Assembly: GCA_964494885.1 (NCBI GenBank)
Contig: CAZBTH010000006.1
Location: forward strand, 1-55,933
Source of the DNA: an uncultured Gammaproteobacteria bacterium
GTDB taxonomy: Bacteria > Patescibacteriota > Microgenomatia > UBA8517
Direction: 5' to 3'
Length of the DNA: 55,933 nt
The notes beneath the pieces were generated by a model. That model made no database searches. It was not told where the DNA came from and saw only the letters and a program-made list of their open reading frames with translations. This document shows positions 2,567 through 30,501 of the stretch, piece after piece. Within the stretch, counting starts at the first letter, position 1. Every line of letters begins with the position of its first letter. A program made the translations under genes and the position numbers.

Positions 2567-3155
2567 TTTTTTTATAGTTGCCTTTATTTTTGCCGCGTTT
2601 GGCGTATTTTTGGTTGTGCAATCGGGCAAAACTCAGAAGCCGGATGTTCCGACGTATGTCCAGTCGATTTTGCCGACCCCAACCCCCACACTTTCTGAGA
2701 TTGTCGACGTTTTATCTCCCGACGGTAAAAAAGTTTTAACTATGAAGGAGGAAAAAGGGAAAGAAACGGTGACTCACACGTTTTTAATTTCAAATCAAAC
2801 TGACAAAGTTCAAAAAATGATATTTACAAAATCTATACCTTCAGACATAGCACTTTCAATTCCTTATAATACATTTTCTCCGGACGGTAAGTTTATTTTC
2901 TTAAAAGAAATGGGTTCCAGGCAACCTTCGTATTTTGTTTTGTCCACTCAAGAATCACAAACCCAGTCAGTCTACAATATTTCGGATCTGTTCTATAGGG
3001 AATATCAGGATTACAAAATTACCGATGTTACAGGATGGGGCGGAATAGGGCTTGTGGTTGTAAATACGGACATGGCAGCTGGAGGAATCGGCCCGTCTTT
3101 TTGGTTTGACGTATCAAACGCTTCTTTCATAAAGCTTTCAACTAGGTTTAACTAA
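2550..3155 (+). CDS. membrane-anchored hypothetical protein
   Basis: N-terminal TM, PTPTP linker, two SPDGK motifs. Confidence 0.75.
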   Translation: MDKHHNFFIVAFIFAAFGVFLVVQSGKTQKPDVPTYVQSILPTPTPTLSEIVDVLSPDGKKVLTMKEEKGKETVTHTFLISNQTDKVQKMIFTKSIPSDIALSIPYNTFSPDGKFIFLKEMGSRQPSYFVLSTQESQTQSVYNISDLFYREYQDYKITDVTGWGGIGLVVVNTDMAAGGIGPSFWFDVSNASFIKLSTRFN

Positions 3156-4030
3156 AGAATAGTTGCTCCCTGATATTGCCAACTAAAACGTACTCTGCCG
3201 TTTGGATAAAAAATTATCTGACGGATTTTCTCGGGATCAACATCTAACGTTAGGGTGTTAGTGAGGCATATATTTTGATTTGAAACATCGTAAATTGCGG
3301 CACTGTGACCAGATAATAAAAGTCTCTTCCCATTTTCTTCCAAATGGTTTCGGATTTTACCAAATTGAGAATCAGTTAAAAGATGAGATTCTGTCCAAAG
3401 TCCTATTTCCGGGTTTTCACTTTCATTTGGTTTCGCAATCTTCCTAAGTGTTAATTGTTCAACGGCCAAGCCTTTGGAAAACTCGATCATTTTGCCCGTT
3501 TTTTCGGCATTATCTATACCCCCATTAAACATTGTGACCGAGAAGCGAACAGAAAAGCCTATTTGGTGGAGTTTATCAACCAATCTGGGAAGCTCGATAT
3601 AATTATTGGAATGAGGGGTATAAATTTTTCGGTTTTCCTCAGGTTCGTAATGGACGACAGAAAGTGCTACAAACGCTAAACCTTTATCGTACCATTTACG
3701 AAGTTCGGGATCGTACAGCCCACTCTTCCTGTCCAGATTTATTCCGTTGGTCTGTAAATCTATTAATGGAAAATTATATTTTTCCAAATGAGAAAGATAT
3801 TCCGTTACTTGATCCGGGAAAAGAGTTGGTTCACCCTTTCCTGTGATTACAACACTTCCTACCCGATAATCTTTTGCAATCTGCGCGGCTTTCTCGAAAT
3901 TGCGCCAATTAATAGGTTGAGGTTTAGTTCCTATTTCGGCAATTCCAGTCATCTTTGAAACACAAAAAGGACATTCCGCGTTACATGACCCGGTTCCTGC
4001 GATAATGCTAAAATTTTCAGCGGTAGGCAT
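3152..4030 (-). CDS. radical SAM protein
   Basis: CxxxCxxC (CNAECPFC), TGKGEPTL and TNG motifs. Confidence 0.9.
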   Translation of the reverse strand: MPTAENFSIIAGTGSCNAECPFCVSKMTGIAEIGTKPQPINWRNFEKAAQIAKDYRVGSVVITGKGEPTLFPDQVTEYLSHLEKYNFPLIDLQTNGINLDRKSGLYDPELRKWYDKGLAFVALSVVHYEPEENRKIYTPHSNNYIELPRLVDKLHQIGFSVRFSVTMFNGGIDNAEKTGKMIEFSKGLAVEQLTLRKIAKPNESENPEIGLWTESHLLTDSQFGKIRNHLEENGKRLLLSGHSAAIYDVSNQNICLTNTLTLDVDPEKIRQIIFYPNGRVRFSWQYQGATIL

Positions 4031-4031
4031 T

Positions 4032-4972
4032 TTAAACGTGCCCCCTTTCTTTTTTTAGGAAATACGGAGTTAAACAAAAACGGAAATTATGTTTTCGGGA
4101 ATAACTTTCGAAACCCGGTGGAATTGTGCCTTTTTTGCGTTTCCAAGAAGAACTGCCTGGCTTGGGTCTACCTGAATTCCAAGCTCTTCTTCCATTTTTC
4201 GTATGGCATCGTCCTGAAAAGCGCGATATTTGTCGACGAGTTGGGTTTCGCCGATATTGTTCAAAACATCTTTTGCGATTCTTAGAGAAAGGATATTTTT
4301 AAACCACTTATTTACTTCCAGTGTCTTCATTTCAAATCGGGTAAAGGTAAATCCGATTCGGTAATAGTAAAGTCCGAAGGGTTTACTTAGGGAAGTGATG
4401 ACTACCAATATATTTTCGTGCTCCAAATCAAAATGATAGGGATTTGTGAGGCCTACATAAGTTGCGTCGTAAACAATTTTATGTCCGGCATTACATGCCG
4501 CAATAATTCCCTCGTTTTGAATGATATTTCCATCCCGAGCGGATGGGTTTGAGATAAATATTATTCCAGGTTCAGTCCTTAGAAAATCAGAAGGCTCTCT
4601 GATGGTCTGAAAATTTAAACCTAAATTTGCGCCATAACCTGCATAACCTTCATATTCTCCCTCAAGTACATATAGCGGTTTTTTAGTTTGCTCTGCAGCA
4701 ATCCTTGAAAGGATGTGGAAAATTCCTTCGCTGGCTCCCCCTGTAACATATTGAAACGGAAACTTTTTTAGGTCTGGCAACTGATGCTCAAAATGTCTCA
4801 AATAACTTTCTATTACAGGACGGTGGTAATCATCGAGTCCGGGTTTGACTGACTTAAGAAAGGTTTCGTGAGGGTAGTCGGCTACGATTTTATCAATCAC
4901 TTCCCTTACTTCCGGAAAATAGTACGCATAAACAGCTTTCAACGGCATTGTTTTTTCGGATTCTTGCGACAT
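4032..4972 (-). CDS. PLP-dependent aminotransferase class I/II-like enzyme; frameshifted near the 3' end (ORF track 4070..4972)
   Basis: GGASEGI, SNPS, YDATY and SLSKPFGL..RIG motifs. Adding one A in the A6 run (4131..4136) restores ...RFCLTPYFLKKERGHV*, which ends 1 nt before the radical SAM ATG. Confidence 0.8.
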
Positions 4973-6541
4973 TTAATCGGTTCTATAATGGCATCCTGCG
5001 CTTTGAGTGTTTTCCCAGGCAGCATTTGCTATCAGGCTTCCGACGAGTACCAAGTTTCTAAGTCCGATTAACGACTCGTTTATTTTTTTCTCTCGATAAA
5101 AGTTTTCTATGCGATGAGTGAGGTAGGAAAGATCTGCAATTGCCCTACTCAAACGTTCTTTGTTTCTTACAAGGCCAACGCAATTCCACATTATTTGCTT
5201 GATCAAATTTGTATCTTGATTTATTAATGCAGGGTCGGGATCTTCTTTACCTTGATCAACCCAACGGGGGATTTGGGTTGGATTCGGAACTTGTGTATTT
5301 TTTGTTTGATTTATATCGTGGGCAGCGATATATCCCCAAGTAAGTCCTTCAAGAAGGGAAGTTGACGCAAGACGGTTTGCTCCATGTAGACCCGTACAAG
5401 CAACTTCACCCACCGCATATAATTTTTTTATGGTAGTTGCTCCATTCTCGTCTACCCAAAGCCCCCCGCAATGATAATGCGCGGCAGGGACCACAGGAAC
5501 CAAGTCGCGGGTTAAATCGATGCCGTATTTTAAACATTCTTTATAGATGTTAGGGAAATGGGTCAGTATCCTTTCCTTTGAAATATAACTTTTTAGGTCC
5601 AGATAGACATTTGTTTTTCCTCCTTCCAACATTTCTGTATAAATTGCGCGGGACACAATGTCACGCGGAGCAAGGTCTTTCCACTCTTTATTGTATTTAT
5701 CCATGAAAGGAACGCCATTTAAATTTGTTAGGCGTGCCCCGTCACCCCTTATTGCCTCGGTAAGCAGAAAACGCGGTGCATCTTTGTGGTAAAAAGCGGT
5801 TGGGTGGAACTGAACATACTCCATATTAATTATGCGTGCGCCGGCCCTCTGGGCCATAGCAATTCCGTCCCCACGAGCTCCATCAGGATTTGTGGAATAT
5901 AAGTAAACATTTCCAAGTCCGCCGGTTGCTAAAATTACATTTTTCGCGAGAATCCTTACAACTCTTTTGTCTTTGGGGTTAAAGAAATAAGCTCCGAGAC
6001 AAGACACGGGATTATAAATTGCCAGTTTATTTGAGGAGTTATGAGACGAGGTGATTAGGTCAATAGCGGAAAGATTTGCAATGAGTTTAATTCTTTTGTC
6101 GTTTCTAATTTTTTCGATTAAAGCATTTTCTATCGATTTACCTGTAGCGTCGGCCTGATGAATTATACGGGCAATACCATGTCCTCCTTCTTTGGCCAAA
6201 GACAACTGCTCGTTTTCCTTGTCGAAGATGACCCCTACTGTATCAATTAGAAATTTTTTGACTAAAGATGGCCCAACTTTAGTTAAAATATTTACCGCTT
6301 TTGGGTTTGACAGATTAACACCTGCGTTGAAAATGTCATTTGCCAAGAGGGACGGGGAGTCACCTTTACCTTTATAAATAATTCCCCCTTGGGCGTAATA
6401 AGTATTTGACTCCTCCGGTTTTTTATTCTTGGTAATAAGAATTACCTTATGTCCCAAGTGTGAAAGTTCCAAAGCGCAAGTAGCGCCGGCAATTCCGCTT
6501 CCAATAATTAATGTATCTATAGTAATTAATTCTTTTTGCAT
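4973..6541 (-). CDS. nadB: L-aspartate oxidase
   Basis: GSGIAG FAD motif, AQGGI, QFHPT, LAPRDIVSR, HYHCGG, HGANRLASTSLLEG. Confidence 0.95.
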   Translation of the reverse strand: MQKELITIDTLIIGSGIAGATCALELSHLGHKVILITKNKKPEESNTYYAQGGIIYKGKGDSPSLLANDIFNAGVNLSNPKAVNILTKVGPSLVKKFLIDTVGVIFDKENEQLSLAKEGGHGIARIIHQADATGKSIENALIEKIRNDKRIKLIANLSAIDLITSSHNSSNKLAIYNPVSCLGAYFFNPKDKRVVRILAKNVILATGGLGNVYLYSTNPDGARGDGIAMAQRAGARIINMEYVQFHPTAFYHKDAPRFLLTEAIRGDGARLTNLNGVPFMDKYNKEWKDLAPRDIVSRAIYTEMLEGGKTNVYLDLKSYISKERILTHFPNIYKECLKYGIDLTRDLVPVVPAAHYHCGGLWVDENGATTIKKLYAVGEVACTGLHGANRLASTSLLEGLTWGYIAAHDINQTKNTQVPNPTQIPRWVDQGKEDPDPALINQDTNLIKQIMWNCVGLVRNKERLSRAIADLSYLTHRIENFYREKKINESLIGLRNLVLVGSLIANAAWENTQSAGCHYRTD

Positions 6542-7629
6542 TAACTTATGGCCATCATTCTTCTAACCGAAAGTTCTGCGGGACGCCTAATTTCTTCCGG
6601 AATGTTCACTTCATATTGATCAAATTTAAGTGCATCGAGAGTTTGTTCCAACGTGATGGTATGCATAAACTTGCAGCGAATGTTGCACATCCGGATTAGG
6701 TTATCGTTAAGCTCCGGGTGGGTGGCAACAATGTTGTCTGCCATGGAACACTCTGTAAGTAGGGCAATTTTTTTATCTGCTCCATTTTCGGTAACCCATT
6801 TTGTCATCGCCGAGGTACTACCCGAAAAGTCCGACTTTGCAATTACGTTGGGTGGACATTCGGGGTGGGCCAGTACAACAGCTCCCGGGTAATCTTTTCT
6901 TATGTCATCGACAAGTTGGGGAGTGTATTGTTCGTGAACATAGCAGCGGGCACCCCATCCGATTATTGTCGGTTTTTGGGTAACTTCTGCTTCACTTTTG
7001 ACAGAATCTTTTGTCGGGAAATATAAATCCATTTTTAGATCATTCGCAACATTGCCGGCCATATATTTGTCCGGAAGAAATATAACTGATGGCACGTTAA
7101 AATACTTTTTGGCCCAGGCAATTACCTGGTTAACATTTCCTGAAGTACAGCAAACATCGGTCAAAGCCTTAACATCAGCAGTAGTATTGATATAACTTAC
7201 AATTGGGAGATTGGGATATTTTTCGCGGAGCCAAACGAGATTTGCTGGTCTAATTCCCTCTGCCAAGGAACAGCCGGCTTCGAGCGAGGGAATAAGGACT
7301 TTTTTGCTGGGATTCAAGATTTTCGCGGTTTCTGCCATAAAGTGTACACCGCAAAAAACAATTGTATCTGCATTGGTTTCCGCCGCCCGTTTGGAAAGTT
7401 CCAGCGAATCCCCTTTAAAGTCTGGGACGGTGTGAAACAGAACCGGCTCCATGTAGTTATGTCCCAAAATTACGGCATTTTTCTGTTTTTTTAGCGCCAT
7501 AATTTGGCTGACGAGATCTGCTTTATACTCAAGTTCAAAATCCGGAACAACGCTCTCAGGAATTGATTTTCTGAGTTCAACTTTTAATCTTTCGTAAACT
7601 TCGGCCGATGACTCTTGTCTTTCTATCAT
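6541..7629 (-). CDS. nadA: quinolinate synthase
   Basis: HNY, GDSLELS, CGVHFMAET, AGCSLA, CYVH, AHPEC, CKFM (three cluster Cys). Confidence 0.95.
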   Translation of the reverse strand: MIERQESSAEVYERLKVELRKSIPESVVPDFELEYKADLVSQIMALKKQKNAVILGHNYMEPVLFHTVPDFKGDSLELSKRAAETNADTIVFCGVHFMAETAKILNPSKKVLIPSLEAGCSLAEGIRPANLVWLREKYPNLPIVSYINTTADVKALTDVCCTSGNVNQVIAWAKKYFNVPSVIFLPDKYMAGNVANDLKMDLYFPTKDSVKSEAEVTQKPTIIGWGARCYVHEQYTPQLVDDIRKDYPGAVVLAHPECPPNVIAKSDFSGSTSAMTKWVTENGADKKIALLTECSMADNIVATHPELNDNLIRMCNIRCKFMHTITLEQTLDALKFDQYEVNIPEEIRRPAELSVRRMMAIS

Positions 7630-8465
7630 GTTTTTATTTCTAAACTAATATCCATTACTTTTACAGAATGTGTCAGGGCTCCTACTGAAATGTGAGTTAC
7701 ACCAGTTTCTGCAATATTTTTTACTGTCTGAAGATTGACGTTTCCGGAGGCCTCAAGTGAAACGCGACCGTTGGTAATACTAACGGCCTCGCGCATTGTT
7801 TCAAGACTCATGTTGTCCAGTAAAATTCTGTTGACAGGGAATTTTAATGCTTCAGTAAGCTCTTCAATATTTTTTACTTCCACCTCGACGGGGAGGTTTA
7901 AGGAGTTCGCTGTCAAAATTTTTTCCAATGTTGCGCCTACTGTTCCCACCGCCGCAATGTGATTATCTTTTATCAGGATCGCGTCGCTTAAGCTATAACG
8001 GTGATTTTGTCCGCCGCCAGCAGATACGGCAATCCTGTCCAGAGGTCTTAGCCCGGGCGCTGTTTTTCTGGTATCCAGAATTATCGTTGAAAAAGGCTCA
8101 ACTGCCTTTACGAATTGATGTGTTAAGGTTGCAATCCCGCTCATTCGTTGAAGAAAATTCAAGGCAACTCTTTCGGCTATCAACATGCTTCTGGTTTTAC
8201 CAAAAACAGTTGCGGGAATATCTCCTTTTTTTACTTCTGTTCCGTCGGGGATAAGAAGTTTAAATTCAATATTTGGGTCAAAAGTTTCAAAAGTAATCCT
8301 CGCTATATTTAGCCCCGCAACAATACCCTCGCTTTTTACAAGAAATTCTGCGGTGGACTCGGCCCAGTCGGGGATACAGAGATCGGTGGTCACATCTCCG
8401 TTAATACCAATGTCTTCGGCAAGCGCTCCTTTTACAATTTGTCTGATTCTTTCGTTTTCTACCAT
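7626..8465 (-). CDS. nadC: nicotinate-nucleotide pyrophosphorylase (quinolinate phosphoribosyltransferase)
   Basis: ERVALNFLQRMSGIAT, DTRKTAPGLR, HR, IKDNH, EVE, LLDNM, EASG motifs. Confidence 0.95.
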   Translation of the reverse strand: MVENERIRQIVKGALAEDIGINGDVTTDLCIPDWAESTAEFLVKSEGIVAGLNIARITFETFDPNIEFKLLIPDGTEVKKGDIPATVFGKTRSMLIAERVALNFLQRMSGIATLTHQFVKAVEPFSTIILDTRKTAPGLRPLDRIAVSAGGGQNHRYSLSDAILIKDNHIAAVGTVGATLEKILTANSLNLPVEVEVKNIEELTEALKFPVNRILLDNMSLETMREAVSITNGRVSLEASGNVNLQTVKNIAETGVTHISVGALTHSVKVMDISLEIKT

Positions 8466-8491
8466 TTGTGTATGAATTACACTTTCTAATG

Positions 8492-8522
8492 GAAGTGTAT
8501 TCCTTACACTAACTATTGTCAA
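8492..8522 (-). promoter_or_regulatory. sigma70 promoter of the nad operon overlapped by a putative NrtR operator (8492..8512)
   Basis: Minus strand reads TTGACA-17 bp-TACACT; the operator TTAGTGT-AAGGAAT-ACACTTC has the GT-N7-AC core. Confidence 0.75.
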
Positions 8523-8561
8523 GTGTCATTTTGAATTGAAATAACGATATAATTAAAATTA

Positions 8562-11567: not shown

Positions 11568-11632
11568 ATTTATTTGAGATGACAGACATCGATGCTAATT
11601 AGGGTGTCGTGCAAATTTGATTTTGCGGCTGG

Positions 11633-11914: not shown

Positions 11915-11969
11915 TTACCCATTATAACAATTTCTAAACTTACAATTTTGTCGGTTATCTTCTTGAAAG

Positions 11970-12042
11970 TGACCCCATTGGGACTCGAACCCAAGTTACT
12001 AGAATGAGAATCTAGTGTCCTAGACCGCTAGACGATGGGGCC
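11970..12042 (-). tRNA. tRNA-Glu(CTC)
   Basis: GGCCCCA/TGGGGTC acceptor stem, anticodon arm ctaga-ttCTCat-tctag, GTTCGAG T-loop; CCA not encoded. Confidence 0.95.
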
Positions 12043-12955: not shown

Positions 12956-15280
12956 ATGCACTGGGCAGACAAAGTAGCGCAAGACATTATTGCATCAAAC
13001 AAATATAAACCTTATTGGGTGGATGATATGAAGACCCCATCGGGATTTGCCCATATTGGGTCAATGCTTGGGCCTGTTATCCATAGCGCGGTTTATCGCG
13101 CGCTAAAGGATGCCCAAGTAGACGCAACACTTACATATGTTTTTAATGATTTTGATACAGCAGATGAATTTCCGGCTCAGTTTAAAGAACTTTTAACAGG
13201 TAACGAAGGAAAAGTTCTTAAGATGGTTCCATCTCCCGATTCAAACTACGAAAACTTTGCAGATTACATTGCCGATGATCTCAAAAAATCTATTGAGTAT
13301 TTAGGCTTTGAGGCAAGATATATTTCTTCTTGGGAACTTTACCATCAGGGTAAATTTGATGACGTTATTAAAATGTCGTTGGATAATGCCGAAAAGATTC
13401 AGGATATTTACGAGAGAATCTCGGGCAGCAAAAAGAAGGAATCCGGCTGGTTGCCTTTCCAGGTAATATGTCCGAATTGTGGAAAACTTGGCACAACAAA
13501 AGTTTTTGCATGGGACGGGAAAGAAGTTTCCTATAAATGCGAAGAAAATCTGGTGACCTGGGCCAAGGGATGTGGACATGAGGGGAAAACGTCCCCTTTT
13601 GGTGGAACTGGAAAGTTGCCTTGGAAAGTTGATTGGGCAGCGCACTGGAAAGTTATCGGTGTAACAATTGAGGGGGCCGGCAAAGATCACGCCTCAGCAG
13701 GAGGAAGCTATGATATTGCGATGGCCATTTGTAAGGAAGTTTTTGGATATCCCGAACCCTATAAATTGCCATACGAATTTTTACTTATTGGCGGACACAA
13801 AATGTCATCTTCAAAAGGGGTTGGTCTAAAGGCTCATGATTTGGTTAAAATCCTACCCGCCGCGGTTGCCAGATTTCTGTTTATAAACAATGACATAAAA
13901 TCGCAAGGTAATTTTGACCCAAATGGAACGATGGCGATTCCCGACCTCTTTGATAAATATGATGAAGCTTGGGAGGCGTACGATAAGCAAAGCTTGCCAT
14001 CGAATGGTAAAAATGGTGACGAAAAACTGAGCAGGACTTATGTTTTGTCTCAAATTAGAGAGGTTCCGGCTAAGGAAAAAGGATTTTTTGCCCTAAGGTT
14101 TCGGGACATTGCAAATTATTTGTCACAGGGACTTTCCGAAAAAGAGGTGTTGGAAAAGATGGAAAAAGCAAAAGGTGGGAAGATAGATGAAAGTGAAATC
14201 GAAATTCTTCATGAGAGAATTAAGTACGCAAAAGTTTGGCTGCAAGATTATGCTCCTAACGAATACAGATTCGAAATGACAGAAGAGGTCCCCGAAGCGG
14301 CCAAGAAATTGTCAGAGGAGCAAAAAAAATACCTAAGTGAAGTTGTAAAACTTTTCGATAACGAAGTTACTGCAGAATCTTTGCAAATCGCACTCTACGA
14401 ACTTTCAAAACAGGTTGGGCTTTCTCCTAAAGATGCTTTTTCTGCAATTTATACAGTTTTTATAGATAAAACTCATGGTCCCCGAGCCGGCATGCTTTTG
14501 ACGAATTTTGGAAAAGAGAAAGTTATTCAAAGAATAGCGGATGTTGTGAATGAGCGATTTGTTTCAACAGCCGAAAATACAGTTAATTTATTAGAGATTC
14601 CGAATTATTTTGTTATTGATGATGGAGTTCGCGCAAAATTCCCATCCGTTTCTGTTGGTGTCGCCTTAATCAAAAATGTTGTTGTTTCGAAAAAAGGTAA
14701 AGATTTACAAAACGAGATAGATCAATTTTCGGCTGAGCATCGGGACCTTACAACTGAAGTTCTTGGGCAATATCCGGAAATAGCAAGCTATCGGAAACTT
14801 TATAAAGAAATGGGTGTCGATTGGCACTCAAAACGTCCGGGACCTGAAGAACTCCTAAGAAGAATTGCCTTAAAGAAAGATTTGTACAGCATTAATGATT
14901 GTGTGGATGCCTATAATTTAACAGTGATGAAAAATCATGTTTCTGTTGGCGCGTTCGATGCTGACCAAATTAGTTTTCCGGCAAGGCTTCAATTTGGAAC
15001 CGAAGGGGGTGAAGTTCTGTTGATCGGTAACAAAGAACCAGTTACATTTACCTCTAAGGAATTGGTATATTATGATCAAAAGGGCCCTTATAATCTTGAT
15101 TTTAATTATAGAGATTCTCAAAGAACTATGGTTACAGAAAAAACAAAAAACATATTAATCAATGTCGATGGAATATTTGACGCAACTCCAGAAAAAGTCC
15201 AGAAAACCTTAGATGAGGCAGTAGAAAAAATAATTAAATATTGCGGTGGAACACTGGAGTTCGGTGGTGTTGTAAAATAG
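12956..15280 (+). CDS. lysS: class I lysyl-tRNA synthetase with C-terminal B3/B4 domain
   Basis: MHWAD start, TPSG.AHIG, KLPWKVDWAAHW, GKDH, KMSSSKG; the last ~220 aa carry B3/4 motifs (E.LLRR, IN..VD.YN, GAFD). Confidence 0.93.
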   Translation: MHWADKVAQDIIASNKYKPYWVDDMKTPSGFAHIGSMLGPVIHSAVYRALKDAQVDATLTYVFNDFDTADEFPAQFKELLTGNEGKVLKMVPSPDSNYENFADYIADDLKKSIEYLGFEARYISSWELYHQGKFDDVIKMSLDNAEKIQDIYERISGSKKKESGWLPFQVICPNCGKLGTTKVFAWDGKEVSYKCEENLVTWAKGCGHEGKTSPFGGTGKLPWKVDWAAHWKVIGVTIEGAGKDHASAGGSYDIAMAICKEVFGYPEPYKLPYEFLLIGGHKMSSSKGVGLKAHDLVKILPAAVARFLFINNDIKSQGNFDPNGTMAIPDLFDKYDEAWEAYDKQSLPSNGKNGDEKLSRTYVLSQIREVPAKEKGFFALRFRDIANYLSQGLSEKEVLEKMEKAKGGKIDESEIEILHERIKYAKVWLQDYAPNEYRFEMTEEVPEAAKKLSEEQKKYLSEVVKLFDNEVTAESLQIALYELSKQVGLSPKDAFSAIYTVFIDKTHGPRAGMLLTNFGKEKVIQRIADVVNERFVSTAENTVNLLEIPNYFVIDDGVRAKFPSVSVGVALIKNVVVSKKGKDLQNEIDQFSAEHRDLTTEVLGQYPEIASYRKLYKEMGVDWHSKRPGPEELLRRIALKKDLYSINDCVDAYNLTVMKNHVSVGAFDADQISFPARLQFGTEGGEVLLIGNKEPVTFTSKELVYYDQKGPYNLDFNYRDSQRTMVTEKTKNILINVDGIFDATPEKVQKTLDEAVEKIIKYCGGTLEFGGVVK

Positions 15281-21352: not shown

Positions 21353-21501
21353 TGTTTTATTTTCTATTTTCAATTATTGATTATATATCCATACCATATA
21401 AAACCCAAATAGCGTTAACTGTCACTATATTGATATATATCAATATAGTGTAGAGTTTGACAACTTCGTATTTTGATTCGAATTGGCTATATAATATTGG
21501 T

Positions 21502-23323: not shown

Positions 23324-23325
23324 AT

Positions 23326-23718
23326 CTATATAGCGATTGGACAACCTTGAATACTAGCCTCGCCGTATCTTGCAGACCTGGTCAAGCCTTCACGAAGGTC
23401 GGAATATTCCTTTCTCATTTGCGGGTCGCTTTCGTGTCCTTCTATTTTTGCCATAAGCTCCTTCCATCTTTCGCGATTGTCTAGGGGTCTGGTCTTAAGT
23501 ATGCAATATTCGGCATACAGTTTCATTCGATCTGCCTTATCGGGGTCGTCTGCCCGGTAATAATCACCCAGAAGTGTAAAATATTCGGACGCAATCTTGC
23601 CGGGAAGAAAATGTCTTTTATCTTCTTCTCTTGCTGGACCACTGAAATATTGTTTTGCGTTATGATAGACTGCTTCGAGTCTCCCTTCATAATCTGCTTC
23701 AGGTTTTGTTTCACTCAT
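23326..23718 (-). CDS. hypothetical protein
   Basis: ORF starting MSETKPE. Confidence 0.6.
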   Translation of the reverse strand: MSETKPEADYEGRLEAVYHNAKQYFSGPAREEDKRHFLPGKIASEYFTLLGDYYRADDPDKADRMKLYAEYCILKTRPLDNRERWKELMAKIEGHESDPQMRKEYSDLREGLTRSARYGEASIQGCPIAI

Positions 23719-23759
23719 TTGGATATATTTATACCAGTTTTTGATAATATAATCAAAGA

Positions 23760-24404
23760 ATGTTTGGAACAAAAATTTTGGAAGAGCGAAAATCTAAATT
23801 TAATGGGGATGTCCGTGTGGTTAAAACTTTTGGAATGGGAATTTATATCACTTCTCAAGGTCTTACACAGTCAGGAGGAATAGTCGAAGACATGTGGAGA
23901 TCGACCTTGAGAAAAATCAAAAATCAAAAATCAAAAATCAAAAGTTGTTTGGTACTGGGACTGGGAGGGGGGACTGTGGCGAAATTAGTTAGAAAAAACT
24001 GGCCGGAAACAAAAATAACCGGTGTGGACATAGACCCCTTAATGATTGAGCTAGGTAAAAAGTATTTAAATTTAGATAAATACGAAGTTAATACAATCGT
24101 AGCAGATGCCTCAAATTTGTCCAATCTGCCGAATCTGTCAAATTGGCCAAAAGCCAAATTCGATTTGGTAATTATAGATTTATATCAAGGTGACCAGTTC
24201 CCTAAGAAGTTTGAAAATTCTTCCTTTTTAGCCTCTGTAAGGCGAGGCCTTGCGGAAGTTGGAGGGATTGCGGTGTTTAACAGACTTTATTACAAAGAGA
24301 AAAAGGTGGACGCAGAGGAGTTTGGGAAAAAACTTAAAAAAGTCTTTAAAAATGTTGAGTCCTTCCGACCCGTTTCTAACATAATGTACTTATGCAACAA
24401 TTAA
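23760..24404 (+). CDS. SAM-dependent methyltransferase, spermidine-synthase-like
   Basis: LVLGLGGG, GVDIDP, DLVIIDLY motifs. Confidence 0.82.
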   Translation: MFGTKILEERKSKFNGDVRVVKTFGMGIYITSQGLTQSGGIVEDMWRSTLRKIKNQKSKIKSCLVLGLGGGTVAKLVRKNWPETKITGVDIDPLMIELGKKYLNLDKYEVNTIVADASNLSNLPNLSNWPKAKFDLVIIDLYQGDQFPKKFENSSFLASVRRGLAEVGGIAVFNRLYYKEKKVDAEEFGKKLKKVFKNVESFRPVSNIMYLCNN

Positions 24405-25840
24405 TACTTGGCCCGGCGCTGTTTTATGATTTGCCTGAATATTTGAATATTGTTTCAAGCCACCCATTTTTCCAGGTCTTTTCGCTTGGCCATTTTCCTA
24501 TCCACCCGGTGTTTGTGGCCATTTTGTGGCTTTTGACAAGGGGCCCCCTTGTCAAAGCTCCTATTCCTATCAATGTGATAGCGATGGTTTTTGGAATAAT
24601 TTCAATTTTTGTATTTAATAAAATATCAAAATTAATTTTCAAAAACGGACACTTTTGGTTGGCAACTATTATTTTTACGCTCTTTCCGGCAGTTTGGTTA
24701 ATAAATACTAATTTGATGGTTGAGTCGGTGACTTTAACCCTTTATCTTGCGGGACTTTATTTCTTTTTAACGAAAAAAGCGATGCAATTTTTTATTAGTT
24801 TATTTTTAATGACCGGAACCCACCTGCAGTCTATTTTTTGGATCCCGGCATTATTTCTTGCTCCCTATATTTTTGAGGTAAATTTCAAAAAGGAGGATGT
24901 TATCAAATTTATAAAAATCGCTTTGGCCGGAATATCAATGTCCATTGTTTTTTACATTCTCTTATATTATTGTTCCGGCAGAATTCCGGGGGGTACAACT
25001 GAGCAACTCTCAACATATTTATCTTCGGGAATATTACGAATGATTAGAAACATTTGGCTTTCTTTTATCCGTAATTTTGGGACGCTTACACCATTTGTTT
25101 TGGCTTTAGTTTTGATCAGAAAAATTAAGTCGAAAAAGGTATTAATAGCCTGGATAATGTTTCTGGTTCTAGTCGCGACAATAGGCGCCAACTGGCAAGG
25201 GGACTTTATGGGTAGGAGAATTATTTTTTCGGGGGTAATTTTAGCACTTGGTCTTTATAAATATTTACAGAAATGGTCCGTCTTTTTCATTTTGTATTTA
25301 TTACCGATCGTCGCAGCAAATGTGATTTTGTATTCAAACTCCAGTCCGTTCATAACTCCAAATATCCCCAAAGGTCAGGTGTTAATTGAAACGCACTACC
25401 TGAAACCTTTTACAAAATATAACGGAACAATTCTTTGGATTGGCGAAAGTGACCTTGGTGTTATCGACAATTATTTAAAAAATGGAACAAGAGTATTTTT
25501 AACCGAACAAGCTATCACGGCTCCATATTTACTCTTAGTCGGACAAAATTACCATATCACTTCACTGGGGAGGGTTGGTGATTCGGAATCAAGATTTCTG
25601 TTCAAAAATTACACAGTTGAACAGTATAACGATAGCTTCGAGTTAAAAATGTTCAATGGAGTAGTTTCCGGTGAGGCGGGGAGTCCGGTAATTTACTACG
25701 ATCAAAGCTTTTGGGGGAGACTCGCGCGCCGAAGAATCGACTACGGAGATATTGGAACTTGGCTTTGGGCAATCACGGTAAACCACCGCGACCCGATCGG
25801 CTGGATTTACAAAGACGCGAGAGGTATGGTTGCCTATTGA
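24392..25840 (+). CDS. polytopic membrane protein, GT-C glycosyltransferase-like
   Basis: About 10 TM helices, D..EY loop, HP motif, C-terminal soluble domain. Confidence 0.6.
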   Translation: MQQLILGPALFYDLPEYLNIVSSHPFFQVFSLGHFPIHPVFVAILWLLTRGPLVKAPIPINVIAMVFGIISIFVFNKISKLIFKNGHFWLATIIFTLFPAVWLINTNLMVESVTLTLYLAGLYFFLTKKAMQFFISLFLMTGTHLQSIFWIPALFLAPYIFEVNFKKEDVIKFIKIALAGISMSIVFYILLYYCSGRIPGGTTEQLSTYLSSGILRMIRNIWLSFIRNFGTLTPFVLALVLIRKIKSKKVLIAWIMFLVLVATIGANWQGDFMGRRIIFSGVILALGLYKYLQKWSVFFILYLLPIVAANVILYSNSSPFITPNIPKGQVLIETHYLKPFTKYNGTILWIGESDLGVIDNYLKNGTRVFLTEQAITAPYLLLVGQNYHITSLGRVGDSESRFLFKNYTVEQYNDSFELKMFNGVVSGEAGSPVIYYDQSFWGRLARRRIDYGDIGTWLWAITVNHRDPIGWIYKDARGMVAY

Positions 25841-25853
25841 CAACATATACTAG

Positions 25854-25874
25854 TTAGTGTATATACTACAATTA
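25854..25874 (+). promoter_or_regulatory. putative NrtR operator overlapping the nrtR promoter
   Basis: TTAGTGT-ATATACT-ACAATTA downstream of TTGACA (25837). Confidence 0.7.
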
Positions 25875-25876
25875 GT

Positions 25877-26533
25877 ATGAAGGATTCAAAAACATTTGCA
25901 GTATTAGCCACAGACGTTGCGGTTTTGACTATCGACGAAGGTGTTCTTAAGGTTCTTTTAACCCAAGCGACATCAAAAAACTTTAAGGGAATGTTAACCT
26001 TGCCCGGAGGTTTAGTCGGCCATGAAGAACGGACGGAAGAAGCCGTCGTAAGGATTCTGGAAGAAATAATGACCAAGACGGATTATTACAATGAGCAACT
26101 TTATACGTTTGACGATCCGGGTAGGGACCCCGAAGGTAGGGTGGTAACGGTTGCTTACTTGATGTTGGTTTCGGGGGATGAGGCTAAAAGAATAACTAGA
26201 AAGGACGCTTCGTGGCACGCTGTGAAAACTTTGCCAAAACTGGCCTACGATCATAACGAGGTCGTAAAGACCGCCGCAAAAAGGCTAGCAGGGAAATTGA
26301 CCTACACAAATATTGTTTATGCCCTAATGCCATTAGAATTTACCCTGTCCGACTTGCAAAAAACTTATGAAACCGCACTGGAACTCTCTTTGGATAAAAG
26401 GAACTTTATTAAAAAAATAAAAAGCTTGAATCTTATCGAAAAGACTACCCATAAGGTTGAGGGTAGTGCACACCGCCCGGCAACCCTTTACAGGTTCAGG
26501 GAGCGAAAATATAAGAGGGTTGACTTATTTTGA
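25877..26533 (+). CDS. nrtR: NrtR-family transcriptional regulator (degenerate NUDIX + wHTH)
   Basis: LPGG, EQLYTF..P.RDP.GRVV.VAY, LAYDH, FTLSDLQ..YE, DKRNF, HRPA.LYRF motifs. Confidence 0.9.
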   Translation: MKDSKTFAVLATDVAVLTIDEGVLKVLLTQATSKNFKGMLTLPGGLVGHEERTEEAVVRILEEIMTKTDYYNEQLYTFDDPGRDPEGRVVTVAYLMLVSGDEAKRITRKDASWHAVKTLPKLAYDHNEVVKTAAKRLAGKLTYTNIVYALMPLEFTLSDLQKTYETALELSLDKRNFIKKIKSLNLIEKTTHKVEGSAHRPATLYRFRERKYKRVDLF

Positions 26534-26576
26534 AAAATACCTATAATACGAAGTTGATGATTTTTGAGCACTTTAG

Positions 26577-26597
26577 TTAGTGTAAAACACACATTTT
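26577..26597 (+). promoter_or_regulatory. putative NrtR operator upstream of the vWA operon
   Basis: TTAGTGT-AAAACAC-ACATTTT; shares TAGTTAGTGTA with the other two sites. Confidence 0.65.
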
Positions 26598-26737
26598 CAG
26601 GATTGAAATGAAGGTTTTTCAGAAAAATCTTCTGACAATTTTTAATTTGTACTTTAACAAGTGAAGAGTATTAAGAAAATAGCCATGGGCGGTTGTTTTC
26701 CACATTCCATATCAAAGATTCAATAAAGGAGAATCAT

Positions 26738-27850
26738 ATGGGCGATCATAAACATACTAAACAGTTTGATGCAGGTGCATATCGGTCGACAGTTAGAGCG
26801 ATGCGTGCCGCTAACGAGGACGTATTCGCAGAGGCACAAAAGGTTCAAGATGAAACCGGCAGGCTTCACCCCAACGTTGACATTCAGGGTAAACCATCTC
26901 GGTTTAGCCACAACGCTTTGGAGCCAGGGGATGATGGCAAGTTTGTTTTGAGTCAGGGGATCTCCCTGCCGATCCTGAGTGAGTTTGATACTACGGGTAG
27001 CACGGCTCATTGGTTGGAGGACTTTTTCCACACAGCCGAGAGGCAATATATGCTCTTGGATGGGGTGCGAACTCGTTACAACCCTCAGTTGTCAACCGGG
27101 GCTGTTTGTGACACCTACAATGTTCGTCAGAGTGGAATCCCCGTTGTTCAGTGTTCGCAATTTGAATCGAACAACGAAAGCGCGAATCAGGTTCGTTTGA
27201 TCCTTCCTGCCAGTATGGGCAACGATACTTCCACCGAAGACTATCAACTTGCGCTGTACTATGCCACGCTCATCAACGCTGACTTTTGGCAACTCTACAA
27301 GTTGAAAGGTTATCTTACCTTGGCACTTGACGAAATCGGCCGTGAACCTGTCACGAGATCAGATATCAAACAATATCTTGGTCAGGAAGGCGATTTTCCG
27401 GAATTGGATGTGAAAGGAATCAGCGAAAAGCTACTCGAACACTGGCATTTCTTTATTCTCCAGGTCCCTACAGGTGGTTATGGAGGAATGCTGAAAGAAA
27501 CCACTCAATGGTGGACGCGCCGTGTTGGACAGGGTCGGGTAATTCAGGTTGAAGAACCGCGGCTTTTGGCGGATGTTCGTGCGGCATTAATCTACGCAAC
27601 AGAAGCGGTCAAACCGACTTTCAAGGGTTATACCCAATTCATGAGAGCCGGTCGCGATATCAAGCTTAATGCGGCTGATCTCAATCTGGTTTGGCGCATG
27701 ATTCAGCCGGCTGAGGAACATTTCAGCGCCCAGGCAAACTTGCCGGGTTACGATGAAATTCCGCTTCCGGGCGACAAATTTGCTCACTACCGCCACGCAT
27801 GGCCGATTGACCATCCGCGCGCGAGTGAAAACGTTACACCCGTCAAGTAA
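26738..27850 (+). CDS. divergent vWA-domain protein
   Basis: MIDAS-like FDTTGS, GN...EDYQLALYYA, KGYL....DE motifs; SD aaggag. Confidence 0.7.
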   Translation: MGDHKHTKQFDAGAYRSTVRAMRAANEDVFAEAQKVQDETGRLHPNVDIQGKPSRFSHNALEPGDDGKFVLSQGISLPILSEFDTTGSTAHWLEDFFHTAERQYMLLDGVRTRYNPQLSTGAVCDTYNVRQSGIPVVQCSQFESNNESANQVRLILPASMGNDTSTEDYQLALYYATLINADFWQLYKLKGYLTLALDEIGREPVTRSDIKQYLGQEGDFPELDVKGISEKLLEHWHFFILQVPTGGYGGMLKETTQWWTRRVGQGRVIQVEEPRLLADVRAALIYATEAVKPTFKGYTQFMRAGRDIKLNAADLNLVWRMIQPAEEHFSAQANLPGYDEIPLPGDKFAHYRHAWPIDHPRASENVTPVK

Positions 27851-27888
27851 TCCTATTTCAAAACATAAAGATATGAAGGAGAAACAAA

Positions 27889-28887
27889 ATGAACGATGAA
27901 CTGAAAGCTGAACTTAAAAGTCTTGGTTTGACAGACGAACAGATTACCGCGATCGGGGAAAACCTTGGTGTGGTCTCCCGTGAGGACATGACGTTCGTTA
28001 CTGTCGAAATGCTGACGGAACTCAAGCTGAAGCCGATTGCGGCTGCCAAAGTGGTCCGTCATTTCAAGACCTCCGATGTCGCAACCACCGCGCCACTCGG
28101 CGAGAAGCCTTCCAAGGCAGACGTCGAGTCCTACGCCAAGAACATTGGGATGGATTCAGGAATGCTTATGGCATTCATGTTCGCGAACGCAGGCAGTGGT
28201 GCCGGGCTTGAAATGGACCTGAGTTCATTTATGCCTCTGGGCCCCATTGTGGCAGGCTATAGCCCCAAGCGCCGCGACATGAGCCTCATGGTCATGGGCC
28301 AGATCGAACGCCGCCTGGAAACTCCCATTGTTATCATCAACGCCGACGGCTCCGTAAATGCTGCCCTGACCGAAAAGTACATCCTCTCCCTGGAGGAAGG
28401 CTTTGATCCGGCAGAGGACGCTGTTTTCTACGATGAAGATGGCTCACCCTACGAGGTGGTTCGCGTTGGTGTGGATGCCCAGGGCATTTACGACGCCGAC
28501 CCGATTGACTCAACCCGTGCGCTTCAGCAAAACGGAATGGGCATCGGCCGCATCAACTGGCACAGTGTGCCTTTGGAGGTGCGTCAGGTGGCCTATTTCG
28601 CGACCCGCTCCGGCGAACTTTCGGCTGGTGATGAATCGAAGCTTCAGTGGCTTCGCACGAACATCAAGCCCGAAACCAAACGACTGGACCTGCGTAGCGA
28701 GTTCCCCAAAGCGATCGGCATGTTCAATGAAGCCAACCGCACGGGCTCTCTGCCTACACTGCGCGTTACGCTTGGTCGTGGCCCCCGCCGCAAGGAAGTT
28801 ATGCCTCGGCGCCGGCTCAATAGTGGTCCTCGTGACCTGTCCGGTCTCAAACGCATCGTTGGCGATCCCGGCGATCCCGATCAGTAA
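27889..28887 (+). CDS. hypothetical protein with N-terminal SAM/HhH-like helical domain
   Basis: LKSLGL...LGV....D...VT.EMLTELKLKPIAA.K pattern; strong SD. Confidence 0.75.
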   Translation: MNDELKAELKSLGLTDEQITAIGENLGVVSREDMTFVTVEMLTELKLKPIAAAKVVRHFKTSDVATTAPLGEKPSKADVESYAKNIGMDSGMLMAFMFANAGSGAGLEMDLSSFMPLGPIVAGYSPKRRDMSLMVMGQIERRLETPIVIINADGSVNAALTEKYILSLEEGFDPAEDAVFYDEDGSPYEVVRVGVDAQGIYDADPIDSTRALQQNGMGIGRINWHSVPLEVRQVAYFATRSGELSAGDESKLQWLRTNIKPETKRLDLRSEFPKAIGMFNEANRTGSLPTLRVTLGRGPRRKEVMPRRRLNSGPRDLSGLKRIVGDPGDPDQ

Positions 28888-28900
28888 TACTCTTCACCTC

Positions 28901-28991
28901 GCTCACTAAAGTGAGCAAACGAGCAGATTGAGCTTACGCTCCGGTTTGCGGGAGAATTTATTTTTTTAAATTCCCCGCAAACCGCTGCTCG
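28901..28991 (+). other. structured RNA: hairpin plus three-way junction
   Basis: GCTCACT/AGTGAGC; CGAGCAG/CTGCTCG enclosing GAGC/GCTC and CGGTTTGCGGG/CCCGCAAACCG stems. Confidence 0.7.
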
Positions 28992-29061
28992 AAACCTATA
29001 TGGATTAAATCCACACTGACGAGTTCTGTTTAAACTCAGTTTAAAAAAGAACGAAAGGTTT
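28992..29061 (+). ncRNA. type III hammerhead ribozyme
   Basis: Stem III AAACCT/AGGTTT, CUA cleavage site (after 28998), stem I TATGGAT/ATCCACA, CUGACGA core, stem II GTTCT/AGAAC, GAAA. Confidence 0.85.
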
Positions 29062-30501
29062 ATGAAAGAAAATGAAAAACATTTTGGAATTGTTAACGGT
29101 ATCGGAATTGGAGAAGAAACAAAAGGTAATACCGTTCAAGCATTGGTTCGTGAGTTAAACGCCCACACTGTCTGGCGATCCGGTAGTTGGGTGGGAGGGC
29201 ACCATATAACTCACGATGATGACCGTGAAGCTGTACTCAATCACTTCGGGGCGGGGGTGTTTGAGGGTGCAGATACATACCTAAAACACATGGTGGTTAA
29301 CCCTGTGGTACTTTTTCAGGAAGCCCTGAGACTTGAGAGTCTGGGTATCCTAAGCCCACTTCAACGTATAAAAATTGATGAAAGTTGTATTGCTTCAACA
29401 CCATTTCATAGCGCAATAAGCCGAGCCAGGGAAATTCTTCGTGGAGAAAACAAGAAAGGTACCATTGGACAGGGTGTTGGTGAGGCCATTAAAGATTCTA
29501 TTGAATCCGAACTTACTGTCAGGGCTGGAGAATTTTCGGACAGGCAAATTATCCTCATGAAAGTAGAAAACATCAGATTGGCAAAACTTAAAATAGTCGA
29601 GCAATTAATTGCCGATCATAAAGGTTCAGTGCCGGAGGAGGTCTATGCCGAGGTAGAAGTGTTGAAAGACAATGATTTAGTTGGGGTTGTGGTTGATAGC
29701 TTTCAATACATTTCAAGCCTGGTTAAAGTGGTTGATAGTCGCTATTTAAATACATTGTTGAGTAGGGGTGGCTCAATTGTAAATGAAGTTTCGCATGGGG
29801 CTCTCCATCATCCAAGATATGGATTTTTACCTCACATTACCCAAATAGATCCGACTTCCCAGGACGTTTTAGCTACGGTTAGGGCCAATAATTATAATGG
29901 CAAAATTATGCGTATCGGAGTAGTCAGAAGTTATCTGACCAGACATGGCGCGGGGCCACTAGTGAGCTTTGATCAAAAGTTAACAGACTCTCTTATATCA
30001 GTAGAAAAAGACAATAACGGGGCAAATGAATGGCTGGGCGCGTTTAGAATTGGGTATTTCGATGTTGTTGCACTGAGATATGCATTATCAATAAGTGGTG
30101 GAAGCAAGGCGTTTGGTGGAATATTTGTGAGTTATTTGGATATTCTTTCCAAGAGAAAAAATTGGCCAGTTGTTGAAGCTTATGAGTACGATGGCAAAGA
30201 AAACGGTTTGGATGATTTCTTTATTATTGAAGGTAGTAAAATCACAGGGATTAAGCTTCACCCCGATATGAATAAAAGTGAACACACGGCTCATCAAATT
30301 CAACTAACAAAACTCCTAAATGAGTGTTCTCCTATCACCACCACCTTGACTCCGACGGAAGAAAAAACACTTGAGCAAGTATTCTTACGATATGTTGAAA
30401 ATAATCTTGGTGTGCCTGTTATTGGAACCGGTTACGGACCTAAAGTAACGGACAGGCATTTTATCCCTCAGTGGCAAAATAATTTAAGACAAGTCGGGTA
30501 A
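29062..30501 (+). CDS. divergent adenylosuccinate synthetase (PurA)-like protein
   Basis: GEETKG P-loop, GHH, GTIGQGVG, YLTRHGAGP, RIGYFD, LDIL, GYGP motifs. Confidence 0.85.
   Translation: MKENEKHFGIVNGIGIGEETKGNTVQALVRELNAHTVWRSGSWVGGHHITHDDDREAVLNHFGAGVFEGADTYLKHMVVNPVVLFQEALRLESLGILSPLQRIKIDESCIASTPFHSAISRAREILRGENKKGTIGQGVGEAIKDSIESELTVRAGEFSDRQIILMKVENIRLAKLKIVEQLIADHKGSVPEEVYAEVEVLKDNDLVGVVVDSFQYISSLVKVVDSRYLNTLLSRGGSIVNEVSHGALHHPRYGFLPHITQIDPTSQDVLATVRANNYNGKIMRIGVVRSYLTRHGAGPLVSFDQKLTDSLISVEKDNNGANEWLGAFRIGYFDVVALRYALSISGGSKAFGGIFVSYLDILSKRKNWPVVEAYEYDGKENGLDDFFIIEGSKITGIKLHPDMNKSEHTAHQIQLTKLLNECSPITTTLTPTEEKTLEQVFLRYVENNLGVPVIGTGYGPKVTDRHFIPQWQNNLRQVG

Follow-up and report, generated by a model that had tools for sequence, protein, structure and literature searches.

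A Patescibacteria-type NrtR regulon and a rare candidate nucleotide module of vWA, PurA-like and nucleotidyltransferase genes

The 55,933-nt stretch of DNA analysed here (contig CAZBTH010000006.1 of an uncultured Patescibacteria bacterium; the whole stretch is called the window) carries a gene for the repressor NrtR, a nad transcription unit and a group of unusual genes headed by a vWA-fold protein. On balance, we favour the reading that the window is a Patescibacteria-type NrtR regulon that includes a rare module of vWA, SAM-like (sterile-alpha-motif-like), PurA-like and nucleotidyltransferase genes, which would make or modify a nucleotide when NAD is broken down. The regulation and the anatomy described below rest on sequence comparisons and structure models. 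NrtR regulation is largely supported for nadCAB and for nrtR itself, and the place of the vWA unit in the regulon is reasonably supported. An earlier note, made from the letters of the window, had spoken of one NrtR-controlled nucleotide system; this is better put as a conserved vWA/PurA-like/nucleotidyltransferase module, with relatives of the kinase and phosphatase kind and a hammerhead-like element inside it, that became part of the NrtR regulon in several lineages of Patescibacteria.

The NrtR operator in the window and in related genomes

The 11-mer TAGTTAGTGTA, searched for across the window exactly and with at most one mismatch, with 100 shuffles as control, occurs in three exact copies, at 8505-8515 (-), 25851-25861 (+) and 26574-26584 (+). 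These are the copies that the earlier note had reported at nadC, nrtR and the vWA operon, and the window holds no further one. With up to one mismatch allowed there are 4 matches against 0.57 expected, a number that none of the 100 shuffles reached. Each exact copy forms the left half of a 21-bp GT-N7-AC site, and the coordinates given earlier (8492-8512, 25854-25874 and 26577-26597) are correct as those of the 21-bp sites containing the 11-mer. The operator consensus is (T)AGTGT-N7-ACACT(A). The window sites match the NrtR family rule of a 21-bp palindrome with a GT-N7-AC core, to which the note had appealed and which is stated in the available part of Rodionov et al. 2008 (PMC2330246).

The first site (box A1) has the sequence TTAGTGTAAGGAATACACTTC on the nadC strand; written as AGTGTA-N5-TACACT, it is an inverted repeat without mismatch that contains a GT-N7-AC core. 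A consensus scan finds the nadC promoter TTGACA-17-TACACT at 8522..8494 (-), which places this site over the spacer and the -10 element, just where it had been put before. A second, tandem box in the nadC promoter (box A2, 8468-8482), 27 bp from box A1, was absent from the earlier note. The box at the nrtR promoter reads as autoregulatory and has the highest position weight matrix (PWM) score in the genome, 22.5 bits; the promoter TTGACA-N17-TATATA assigned to nrtR is a by-eye reading, and a consensus scan of 25700-29100 gave no such call. In the vWA unit the third, candidate box is part of the leader and follows the promoter-like TTGACT-16-TATAAT (26520-26547) at a distance of about 30 nt. 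This leader also holds a conserved motif of about 20 nt (ACTTTAACAAGTGAAGAGTG and variants), which in five loci (window 26640-26680, L007, L008, L009 and L010) stands 70-210 nt ahead of the start of the vWA gene; a MAFFT alignment of the vWA leaders did not align it.

NrtR is a genuine Nudix and NrtR winged-helix protein by its Pfam domains, as had been claimed, and scores 108.6 bits with the NCBIfam NrtR model, where the equivalog cut-off is 400. Among 400 sampled Patescibacteria genomes the NrtR winged helix is present in 20, and 18 of these were scanned for the operator. AGTGT-N7-ACACT occurs 40 times in the 18 genomes versus 7 times for the reversed control, and it stands beside nrtR in 13 of them; the same box type precedes nrtR in L008. 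Boxes are also located before pnuC in G086 (two tandem boxes) and G245, before nadK in G086, and before both nadE and nadC-nadA in G245. The operator assignment is sound, because these boxes before nrtR and NAD genes in relatives match the published NrtR regulons as set out in the available part of PMC2330246. A full-text literature search, with supplements outside its scope, found no paper in which NrtR appears together with Patescibacteria. The genome also has a second NrtR paralogue (Nudix and NrtR_WHD; contig C12 17289-17948, L015 3290-3949), the next gene being yceG-like. Boxes of a different type, (A)CGT-N7-ACG(T), lie upstream of this paralogue's own gene, an indication that this 1.14-Mb genome holds two NrtR proteins, each recognising its own operator type.

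Across the genome of the window (G000; 1,141,168 bases in 34 contigs, 39.9% GC, 95.6% complete), only two sites are perfect matches to GTGTA-N5-TACAC, both of them nadC boxes, and 16 carry one mismatch. With one mismatch allowed, TAGTTAGTGTA is not enriched genome-wide (20 matches versus 27 for the reversed control). The one further exact copy, at C3:92890, was rejected as an NrtR box, lying in coding sequence with no GT-N7-AC partner. Other high-scoring candidates were rejected as well: C13:12199 is inside an open reading frame, C1:60493 is flanked by PolX and LysM genes, and C10:20047 has genes for a TagD-like cytidylyltransferase and a zinc-ribbon protein as neighbours.

The vWA/PurA-like/nucleotidyltransferase module

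Nine cluster loci were compared: the window, L007, L008, L009, L010 (a Daviesbacteria contig), and G015, G086, G311 and G389, the four other cluster-bearing genomes of the 400-genome sample. The names of the homologues include Daviesbacteria, Roizmanbacteria and Sungbacteria, which together with its small size assigns the genome of the window to Patescibacteria. vWA-like and strong PurA-like matches (E <= 7e-47) fall in exactly the same 4 of 400 genomes, from four families, and the next-best PurA matches in the sample are at 1e-24 or weaker; the two families thus occur together, a co-occurrence for which the earlier note had proposed to look. The module is conserved but rare. The order vWA, middle gene, PurA-like gene and convergent nucleotidyltransferase gene is kept in the window, L008, L009 and L010 (tblastn), and the vWA, PurA-like and nucleotidyltransferase genes are syntenic in six loci; in L007 the nucleotidyltransferase gene was not seen because the locus breaks off within the PurA-like gene. 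A second layout is seen in G389 and G015, where a gene X, the vWA and PurA-like genes and a gene Y are followed by the convergent nucleotidyltransferase gene. Protein Y has an N-terminal SAM-like part in common with the middle protein of the window, and protein X is kinase-like by eye only, with PDB casein kinase II matches at E 0.4-0.9 and none in Pfam. In G086 and G311, Ser/Thr kinase (Pkinase) genes and a pyruvate-kinase-barrel-like gene stand beside the vWA and PurA-like genes, and the G086 cluster also has a uridine-kinase/PRK-family kinase gene. The convergent nucleotidyltransferase gene is a fourth conserved member, which the earlier note did not contain. As to the vWA operon of that note, its vWA, SAM-like and PurA-like genes are present, but they do not make a plain three-gene operon, since a folded spacer with a hammerhead-like ribozyme lies between the SAM-like and PurA-like genes.

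An independent PWM was built from 19 boxes adjoining nrtR or classical NAD genes, with cluster sites excluded. It finds a box upstream of five of the nine clusters: L010 (26.2 bits), G389 (21.1), L008 (15.2), G015 (14.9) and the window (14.6). A site of at least 13 bits is met in only 0.9% of 2000 random 300-nt windows, and the L010 box contains the identical 11-mer. These comparisons lend the vWA site support, because in three distant genomes the homologous cluster stands behind a strong box (and in L008 behind a weaker one). Furthermore, nrtR adjoins the cluster in the window, L008 and G389, and NrtR is present in three of the four other cluster genomes versus 20 of 400 in the phylum sample.

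The relatives of the vWA protein begin at the position equivalent to ATG 26738. All 27 of the 27 sequences compared keep residues D84, T86 and S88, which form a DxTxS rather than a DxSxS motif, and the AlphaFold2 model (pLDDT 89.9) matches integrin beta-I/vWA at E 4e-7, which agrees with the fold assigned earlier. The family is small, with only 32 clusters among 5.8 billion proteins. At least 146 relatives of the SAM-like protein were found, all of them hypothetical proteins of Patescibacteria. Pfam SAM_TNK is matched in two of them (P0066 and P0073) and not in the protein of the window itself, for which the ESM Atlas gave no usable lead. Over 27001-28800, comprising the last part of the vWA gene together with the SAM-like gene, the GC content is 0.49-0.58 versus 0.40 for the genome, and this suggests a foreign origin of the GC-rich stretch. 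The 618-aa nucleotidyltransferase carries invariant G432, S433, D444 and D446 (the GS...DxD motif of Pol-beta), has a profile match to the MNT nucleotidyltransferase HI0073 (E 8.7e-5) and is modelled by AlphaFold2 with a pLDDT of 88. Foldseek of this model against the PDB gave no fold match at E <= 0.001; in the ESM Atlas the best score was 0.87, to hypothetical proteins, with no usable lead. Its family has 512 representatives.

The PurA-like gene is the only PF00709 match in the genome. Its score of 138 bits exceeds the family cut-off of 27, and the best NCBIfam purA model gives 110.4 bits against a cut-off of 402, so that the protein belongs to the family without reaching the equivalog level. 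For residue mapping, the protein of the window was aligned to E. coli PurA and eight family members were then compared. The P-loop Gly-x-x-x-Lys-Gly, the equivalent of the catalytic His41, the TRHGAGP motif and the guanine-binding Asp are kept, and the residues at the positions of N38, T129, R143 and Q224 differ, with D13 replaced by E in the protein of the window. Lost in all eight members is the TTGRxRR loop, which we take to be the aspartate-binding loop of E. coli PurA (the roles given here to the catalytic His and the guanine-binding Asp are assumed in the same way); the protein of the window has NEWLGAFR instead, together with a C-terminal extension of about 100 aa. The lost loop and the equivalog cut-offs fit the non-canonical PurA of the earlier note. 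A search for PurB (Lyase_1, PF00206) found none in G000 or in five other genomes, and the control search matched 14 of 14 known genomes. Because the aspartate loop is lost and the genome has no PurB match, the PurA-like protein would not serve the usual IMP-to-AMP route.

A complex of the vWA and PurA-like proteins was predicted with an ipSAE of 0.76, against 0.00 for the best of three controls; 58 of 80 solved complexes come up to this value, as do 2 of 110 mismatched pairs. At least 67% of contacts are common to the runs, and the pLDDT of the partner is at least 79. In the predicted interface, residues 9-26 of the vWA protein contact residues 81-121 and 193-220 of the PurA-like protein. The model thus supports binding between the two. 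A literature search for 'adenylosuccinate synthetase-like' with vWA found no paper, and Kaur et al. 2020 contains no mention of PurA or adenylosuccinate (supplements being outside the scope of the search); the literature searches made thus gave no account of a module of this kind.

In six genomes (loci L018, L028, L035, L037, L038 and L040; genomes G086, G245, G393, G185, G148 and G088) an NrtR box precedes a PP2C phosphatase gene. A gene for a kinase-like/zinc-ribbon/beta-rich protein of about 614 aa follows in five of the six loci, and in G088 the contig ends. The PP2C/kinase pair looks like a recurrent member of NrtR regulons that is unrelated to NAD synthesis. PADLOC, run on the kinases of relatives, gave generic kinase matches only. 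According to the available part of PMC11090510, TerY-P combines a vWA protein with a PP2C phosphatase and a kinase that carries a fused zinc ribbon, and TerY-P-like modules act as stand-alone anti-phage systems.

A hammerhead-like element and the neighbouring genes

Between the SAM-like and PurA-like genes lies a 174-nt spacer (28888-29061) with a folding energy of -66 kcal/mol (z = -8.0); none of 200 shuffles folds as well. RNAalifold on the whole spacer gave a poor consensus, and the hammerhead was spotted by reading that alignment. The element has intact CUGANGA and GAAA cores and abuts the start codon of the PurA-like gene, the 3' strand of its stem III overlapping the ribosome-binding region. 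Hammerhead-like elements are found at the equivalent place in L007, L009 (35.0 bits, E 3.7e-4) and L010. When five copies are aligned, 93.8% of cells are paired and compensatory changes occur at 9 of the 16 pairs; none of 500 shuffles reaches the observed values, and slid controls pair at 26-49%. The conserved core and the three helices kept by compensatory change speak for a type III hammerhead. A literature search, supplements again outside its scope, found no paper mentioning a hammerhead ribozyme in Patescibacteria. A further hammerhead-like copy is located at 55755-55810 (+) of the window (39.2 bits, E 2.9e-7 in a 334-nt search), which the default Rfam scan missed because it scores under the gathering threshold, and a third one lies on contig C16 of the same genome near 9526 (-).

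The nad unit runs on the minus strand from nadC, nadA and nadB into the PLP-fold and radical SAM genes, with gene ends overlapping or nearly abutting. The likely start of nadC is the in-frame ATG at 8465 rather than the upstream TTG of the mechanical reading frame, and the NadC of G245 aligns from residue 7 as counted from this ATG. The PLP-fold protein has HisC/CobD-like matches far under cut-off, and the radical SAM protein has weak matches to a MoaA/viperin-like core, also far under the cut-offs. The latter gene is not NAD-specific, because its family (603 relatives) is widespread in small-genome bacteria (Patescibacteria) and small archaea. The nadC-nadA locus of G245, the sole related one examined, has neither gene. 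Both are probably operon passengers only, and the part in an NAD response that had been given to them was not sustained. Divergent from nadC, the 1001-aa Nudix and methyltransferase protein scores 73.9 bits with a PRK06922-like model against a cut-off of 602. The HD domain ascribed to it in the earlier note found no match even at E <= 1, and NrtR control of this gene is possible. Elsewhere in the window (12956-15280, +), a class I lysyl-tRNA synthetase is fused to a C-terminal B3_4 domain in a 774-aa protein of unusual architecture. Four public sequencing runs contain the sequence; all are DNA runs of one groundwater study, possibly the source of the assembly, and none is an RNA run.

Table 1 Genes, promoters, candidate operators and RNA elements of the window
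Feature	Position	Strand	Characteristics
Radical SAM protein, 292 aa, last gene of the nad unit	3152..4030	-	Pfam Radical_SAM E 3.4e-11
Short PLP-fold aminotransferase-like protein, 300 aa	4070..4972	-	Aminotran_1_2 23.2 bits, residues 134-213 only
nadB, L-aspartate oxidase	4973..6541	-	FAD_binding_2 E 1.9e-81 and Succ_DH_flav_C
nadA, quinolinate synthase	6541..7629	-	Pfam NadA E 2.7e-96
nadC, quinolinate phosphoribosyltransferase	7626..8465	-	QRPTase_C and QRPTase_N (Pfam)
NrtR box A2	8465..8485, core 8468-8482		perfect GTGTA-N5-TACAC; abuts nadC start codon; PWM 21.0 bits
NrtR box A1	8492..8512, core 8495-8509		perfect palindrome, carries the 11-mer; over spacer and -10 of nadC promoter
nadC promoter	8522..8494	-	TTGACA-17-TACACT, consensus scan; 11-mer within spacer and -10
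Promoter-like site of 1001-aa gene	8531-8559		TTGAAT-17-TAAAAT, consensus scan
Nudix ... class I methyltransferase protein, 1001 aa	8562..11567	+	NUDIX residues 24-150, Methyltransf_16 662-803; divergent from nadC
NrtR box at nrtR promoter	25854..25874, core 25857-25871		1 mismatch to GTGTA-N5-TACAC, in right arm
nrtR, Nudix and winged-helix repressor, 218 aa	25877..26533	+	NrtR_WHD E 3.4e-22, NUDIX E 4.1e-9
vWA-unit promoter-like site	26520..26547	+	TTGACT-16-TATAAT, 11/12, consensus scan
Candidate NrtR box, vWA leader	26577..26597		exact left half, degenerate right half; 2 mismatches; GT-N7-AC core intact
vWA-fold protein, 370 aa from ATG 26738	26738..27850	+	invariant DxTxS MIDAS-like motif; no Pfam family
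SAM-like N-terminal domain protein, 332 aa	27889..28887	+	R-rich tail
Long stable hairpin	28920..28992	+	just upstream of hammerhead; no T-run, not called by terminator scan
Type III hammerhead-like ribozyme	28993..29060	+	Rfam RF00008 full length, 18.9 bits, E 0.18
PurA-superfamily ligase without aspartate loop, 479 aa	29062..30501	+	PF00709 138 bits
Pol-beta-type nucleotidyltransferase protein, 618 aa	30484..32340	-	convergent; new helical N-terminal part, nucleotidyltransferase C-terminal

Possible functions and comparison with known systems

In the mechanism that we propose, NrtR (25877-26533) would bind (T)AGTGT-N7-ACACT(A) operators at three places. Tandem boxes over the nadC promoter and 5' untranslated region would control nadC-nadA-nadB together with the PLP-like and radical SAM genes, one box would act at the promoter of nrtR itself, and one weaker box would act in the leader of the vWA unit. 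ADP-ribose, a product of NAD cleavage, would release NrtR, by analogy with characterised NrtR proteins. The third target would be the accessory module, composed of the vWA and SAM-like proteins, the PurA-superfamily ligase and the convergent Pol-beta nucleotidyltransferase. This module may resemble a vWA/kinase/phosphatase switch of the TerY-P type, because the modules of other lineages carry kinases or kinase-like proteins and PP2C/kinase pairs share the operator. The PurA-like ligase, bound to the vWA protein through that protein's N-terminal helix, may join a different amine to an activated oxo-nucleotide, and the hammerhead-like ribozyme would cut the PurA-like mRNA from the upstream genes. 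Most likely the module would make or modify a nucleotide during NAD breakdown, either as a stress or conflict response or for NAD or adenylate supply.

NrtR regulons are known for NAD supply, and the same operator here appears also to govern a conserved module in ultra-small, cell-dependent groundwater bacteria. This points to a link of NAD breakdown with vWA/kinase signalling modules, which elsewhere are implicated in phage defence. With a PurA paralogue apparently unable to work as PurA, a regulator whose probable ligand can be named, operators that are defined and a small number of proteins, the module offers a testable handle on nucleotide chemistry in this phylum, and it holds a new nucleotidyltransferase family. 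The hammerhead-like element next to the start codon of the PurA-like gene may be a natural case of a ribozyme that processes a bacterial polycistronic mRNA.

Several observations weigh against this reading. The vWA box is a weak palindrome, one among 312 genome sites with at most two mismatches to GTGTA-N5-TACAC, and the palindrome alone therefore gives it no significance. In the genome-wide PWM scan that the earlier note had suggested, the nrtR box came out on top and nadC box A2 scored high (21.0 bits), but the vWA site ranked only 11th and 39th with two smaller PWMs. The 19-box PWM found no box upstream of four of the nine clusters (L007, L009, G086 and G311), G311 has no NrtR, and the counts overstate significance because genomes sharing ancestry are not independent. 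NadA is present in none of the four other cluster genomes, and the module therefore has no fixed tie to de novo NAD synthesis. The hammerhead-like element is missing in L008, and every copy scores (18.9-39.2 bits) under the Rfam gathering threshold of 48.5. A tblastn search with one Patescibacteria query set detected no PP2C or kinase/zinc-ribbon homologue in G000, nor is there one in the window, which leaves the TerY-P analogy incomplete here; PADLOC gave no match to the vWA, SAM-like, PurA-like and nucleotidyltransferase proteins, nor to the vWA and PP2C proteins of relatives. The third site might thus be fortuitous, with the vWA cluster merely adjoining nrtR, and NrtR controlling only nadCAB and itself. 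The poor right half-site would fit, as would the clusters that have no box and the 39th rank, obtained with the PWM built only from sites of other genomes. We nevertheless hold a fortuitous site to be very unlikely, since the exact 11-mer is common to the two strong sites and the L010 cluster box, strong boxes precede the G389 and G015 clusters, whose vWA identity to that of the window is only 23-28%, nrtR adjoins the cluster in three loci, and read-through from nrtR would couple both units anyway.

The module might instead be a metabolic add-on of NAD or adenylate supply, its ligase and nucleotidyltransferase filling a step that the genome lacks; candidates are amidation of NaMN or NaAD in place of NadE, or direct amination of IMP to AMP without PurB. 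We consider such a role unlikely, although it would explain why the cluster has an operator in common with NAD genes, the same as that of pnuC, nadE and nadK in relatives. G000 has nadB, nadA, nadC and a protein weakly resembling NadM-type NMN adenylyltransferases, and genome searches gave no match to NadE, the NAD kinase NadK (PF01513) or PnuC. Among the sampled genomes, 16 of 400 carry NadA and 27 of 340 carry NadE; at least 13 of the 16 other NadA-bearing genomes have NadE, the remaining three possibly lying outside the 340-genome sample. G000 thus appears exceptional as NadA-positive and NadE-negative, but its assembly is incomplete (95.6%, 34 contigs), so NadE or NadK may be unassembled, and NadE is rare in the phylum in any case. 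The missing NadE, NadK, PnuC and PurB would be either assembly gaps or steps filled by other enzymes. No cluster genome searched has PurB, and the uridine-kinase/PRK-family kinase and the pyruvate-kinase-barrel-like enzyme of the G086 cluster would also suit a metabolic role. PurA chemistry, however, activates a ring carbonyl and not a carboxylate, and vWA proteins, kinases and a sporadic distribution are unusual for a core pathway. Replacement of NadE by the module is possible, weakly supported, because the other cluster genomes have no NadA and only G086 among them has a true NadE, side by side with the cluster. In its most specific form, a PurA-family ligase on a vWA partner would supply the amination or amidation step missing in this NadA-positive, NadE- and PurB-negative genome and complete NAD or adenylate synthesis, its mRNA freed by a hammerhead within the operon and the whole placed under one ADP-ribose-sensing repressor; this we judge quite unlikely. 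Improbable, too, is a TerY-P-like conflict system (anti-phage or inter-bacterial) gained by transfer, with the ligase and the nucleotidyltransferase as effectors or signal makers and NrtR control as a switch that turns on when NAD is destroyed and ADP-ribose rises, as in infection. A patchy distribution (vWA-like and PurA-like proteins in 4 of 400 genomes of four families), the raised GC content, a gene content that varies between loci, the MNT-like domain and the vWA/kinase/PP2C theme, reminiscent of the TerY-P-like anti-phage modules in the available part of PMC11090510, would all be expected of such a system. Yet PADLOC returned only generic kinase matches, no toxin or nuclease effector is recognisable, G000 has neither kinase nor phosphatase with the queries used, and the nucleotidyltransferase family is large enough (512 representatives) that it may be housekeeping in the phylum.

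The reading we favour, an NrtR regulon with an accessory module that makes or modifies a nucleotide, shares features with several known systems. As in the NrtR regulons of NAD metabolism described in the available part of PMC2330246, we find a Nudix and winged-helix protein, a 21-bp GT-N7-AC operator, apparent autoregulation and NAD targets, here nadABC and in relatives pnuC, nadE and nadK. Unlike those regulons, the present one would also take in the vWA/PurA-like/nucleotidyltransferase module and PP2C/kinase pairs, which are not among the targets in that part of the paper. The ligase resembles PurA (E. coli 1ade, 1cg4) in its PF00709 fold family and in the kept P-loop, catalytic His, TRHGAGP motif and guanine-binding Asp, and differs from it in the lost TTGRxRR loop, the C-terminal extension, the predicted vWA partner and the genome without PurB. 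Like phage PurZ of the 2-aminoadenine pathway, it is a divergent PurA paralogue that seems to stand outside purine housekeeping (phrog_1211, 152 bits, a score that does not discriminate PurZ because it is similar to the plain PurA Pfam score), but the gene lies in a cellular context without phage genes. Like RF00008 type III hammerheads, the RNA element has CUGANGA and GAAA cores and three stems, of which I and II are closed, and each of the three shows compensatory changes; it departs from those hammerheads in its score under gathering, in its position inside a bacterial gene cluster, and in a stem III that lies over the ribosome-binding region of the next gene. With TerY-P, as far as the available part of PMC11090510 describes it, the module would have in common a stand-alone vWA protein with a MIDAS-like motif, the kinases in the clusters of relatives, and the PP2C and kinase/zinc-ribbon pairs under the same operator in six related genomes. 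In contrast to TerY-P, the genome of the window has no detectable PP2C or kinase and no PADLOC match, and the constant partners of the vWA protein are a PurA-like ligase and a Pol-beta nucleotidyltransferase.

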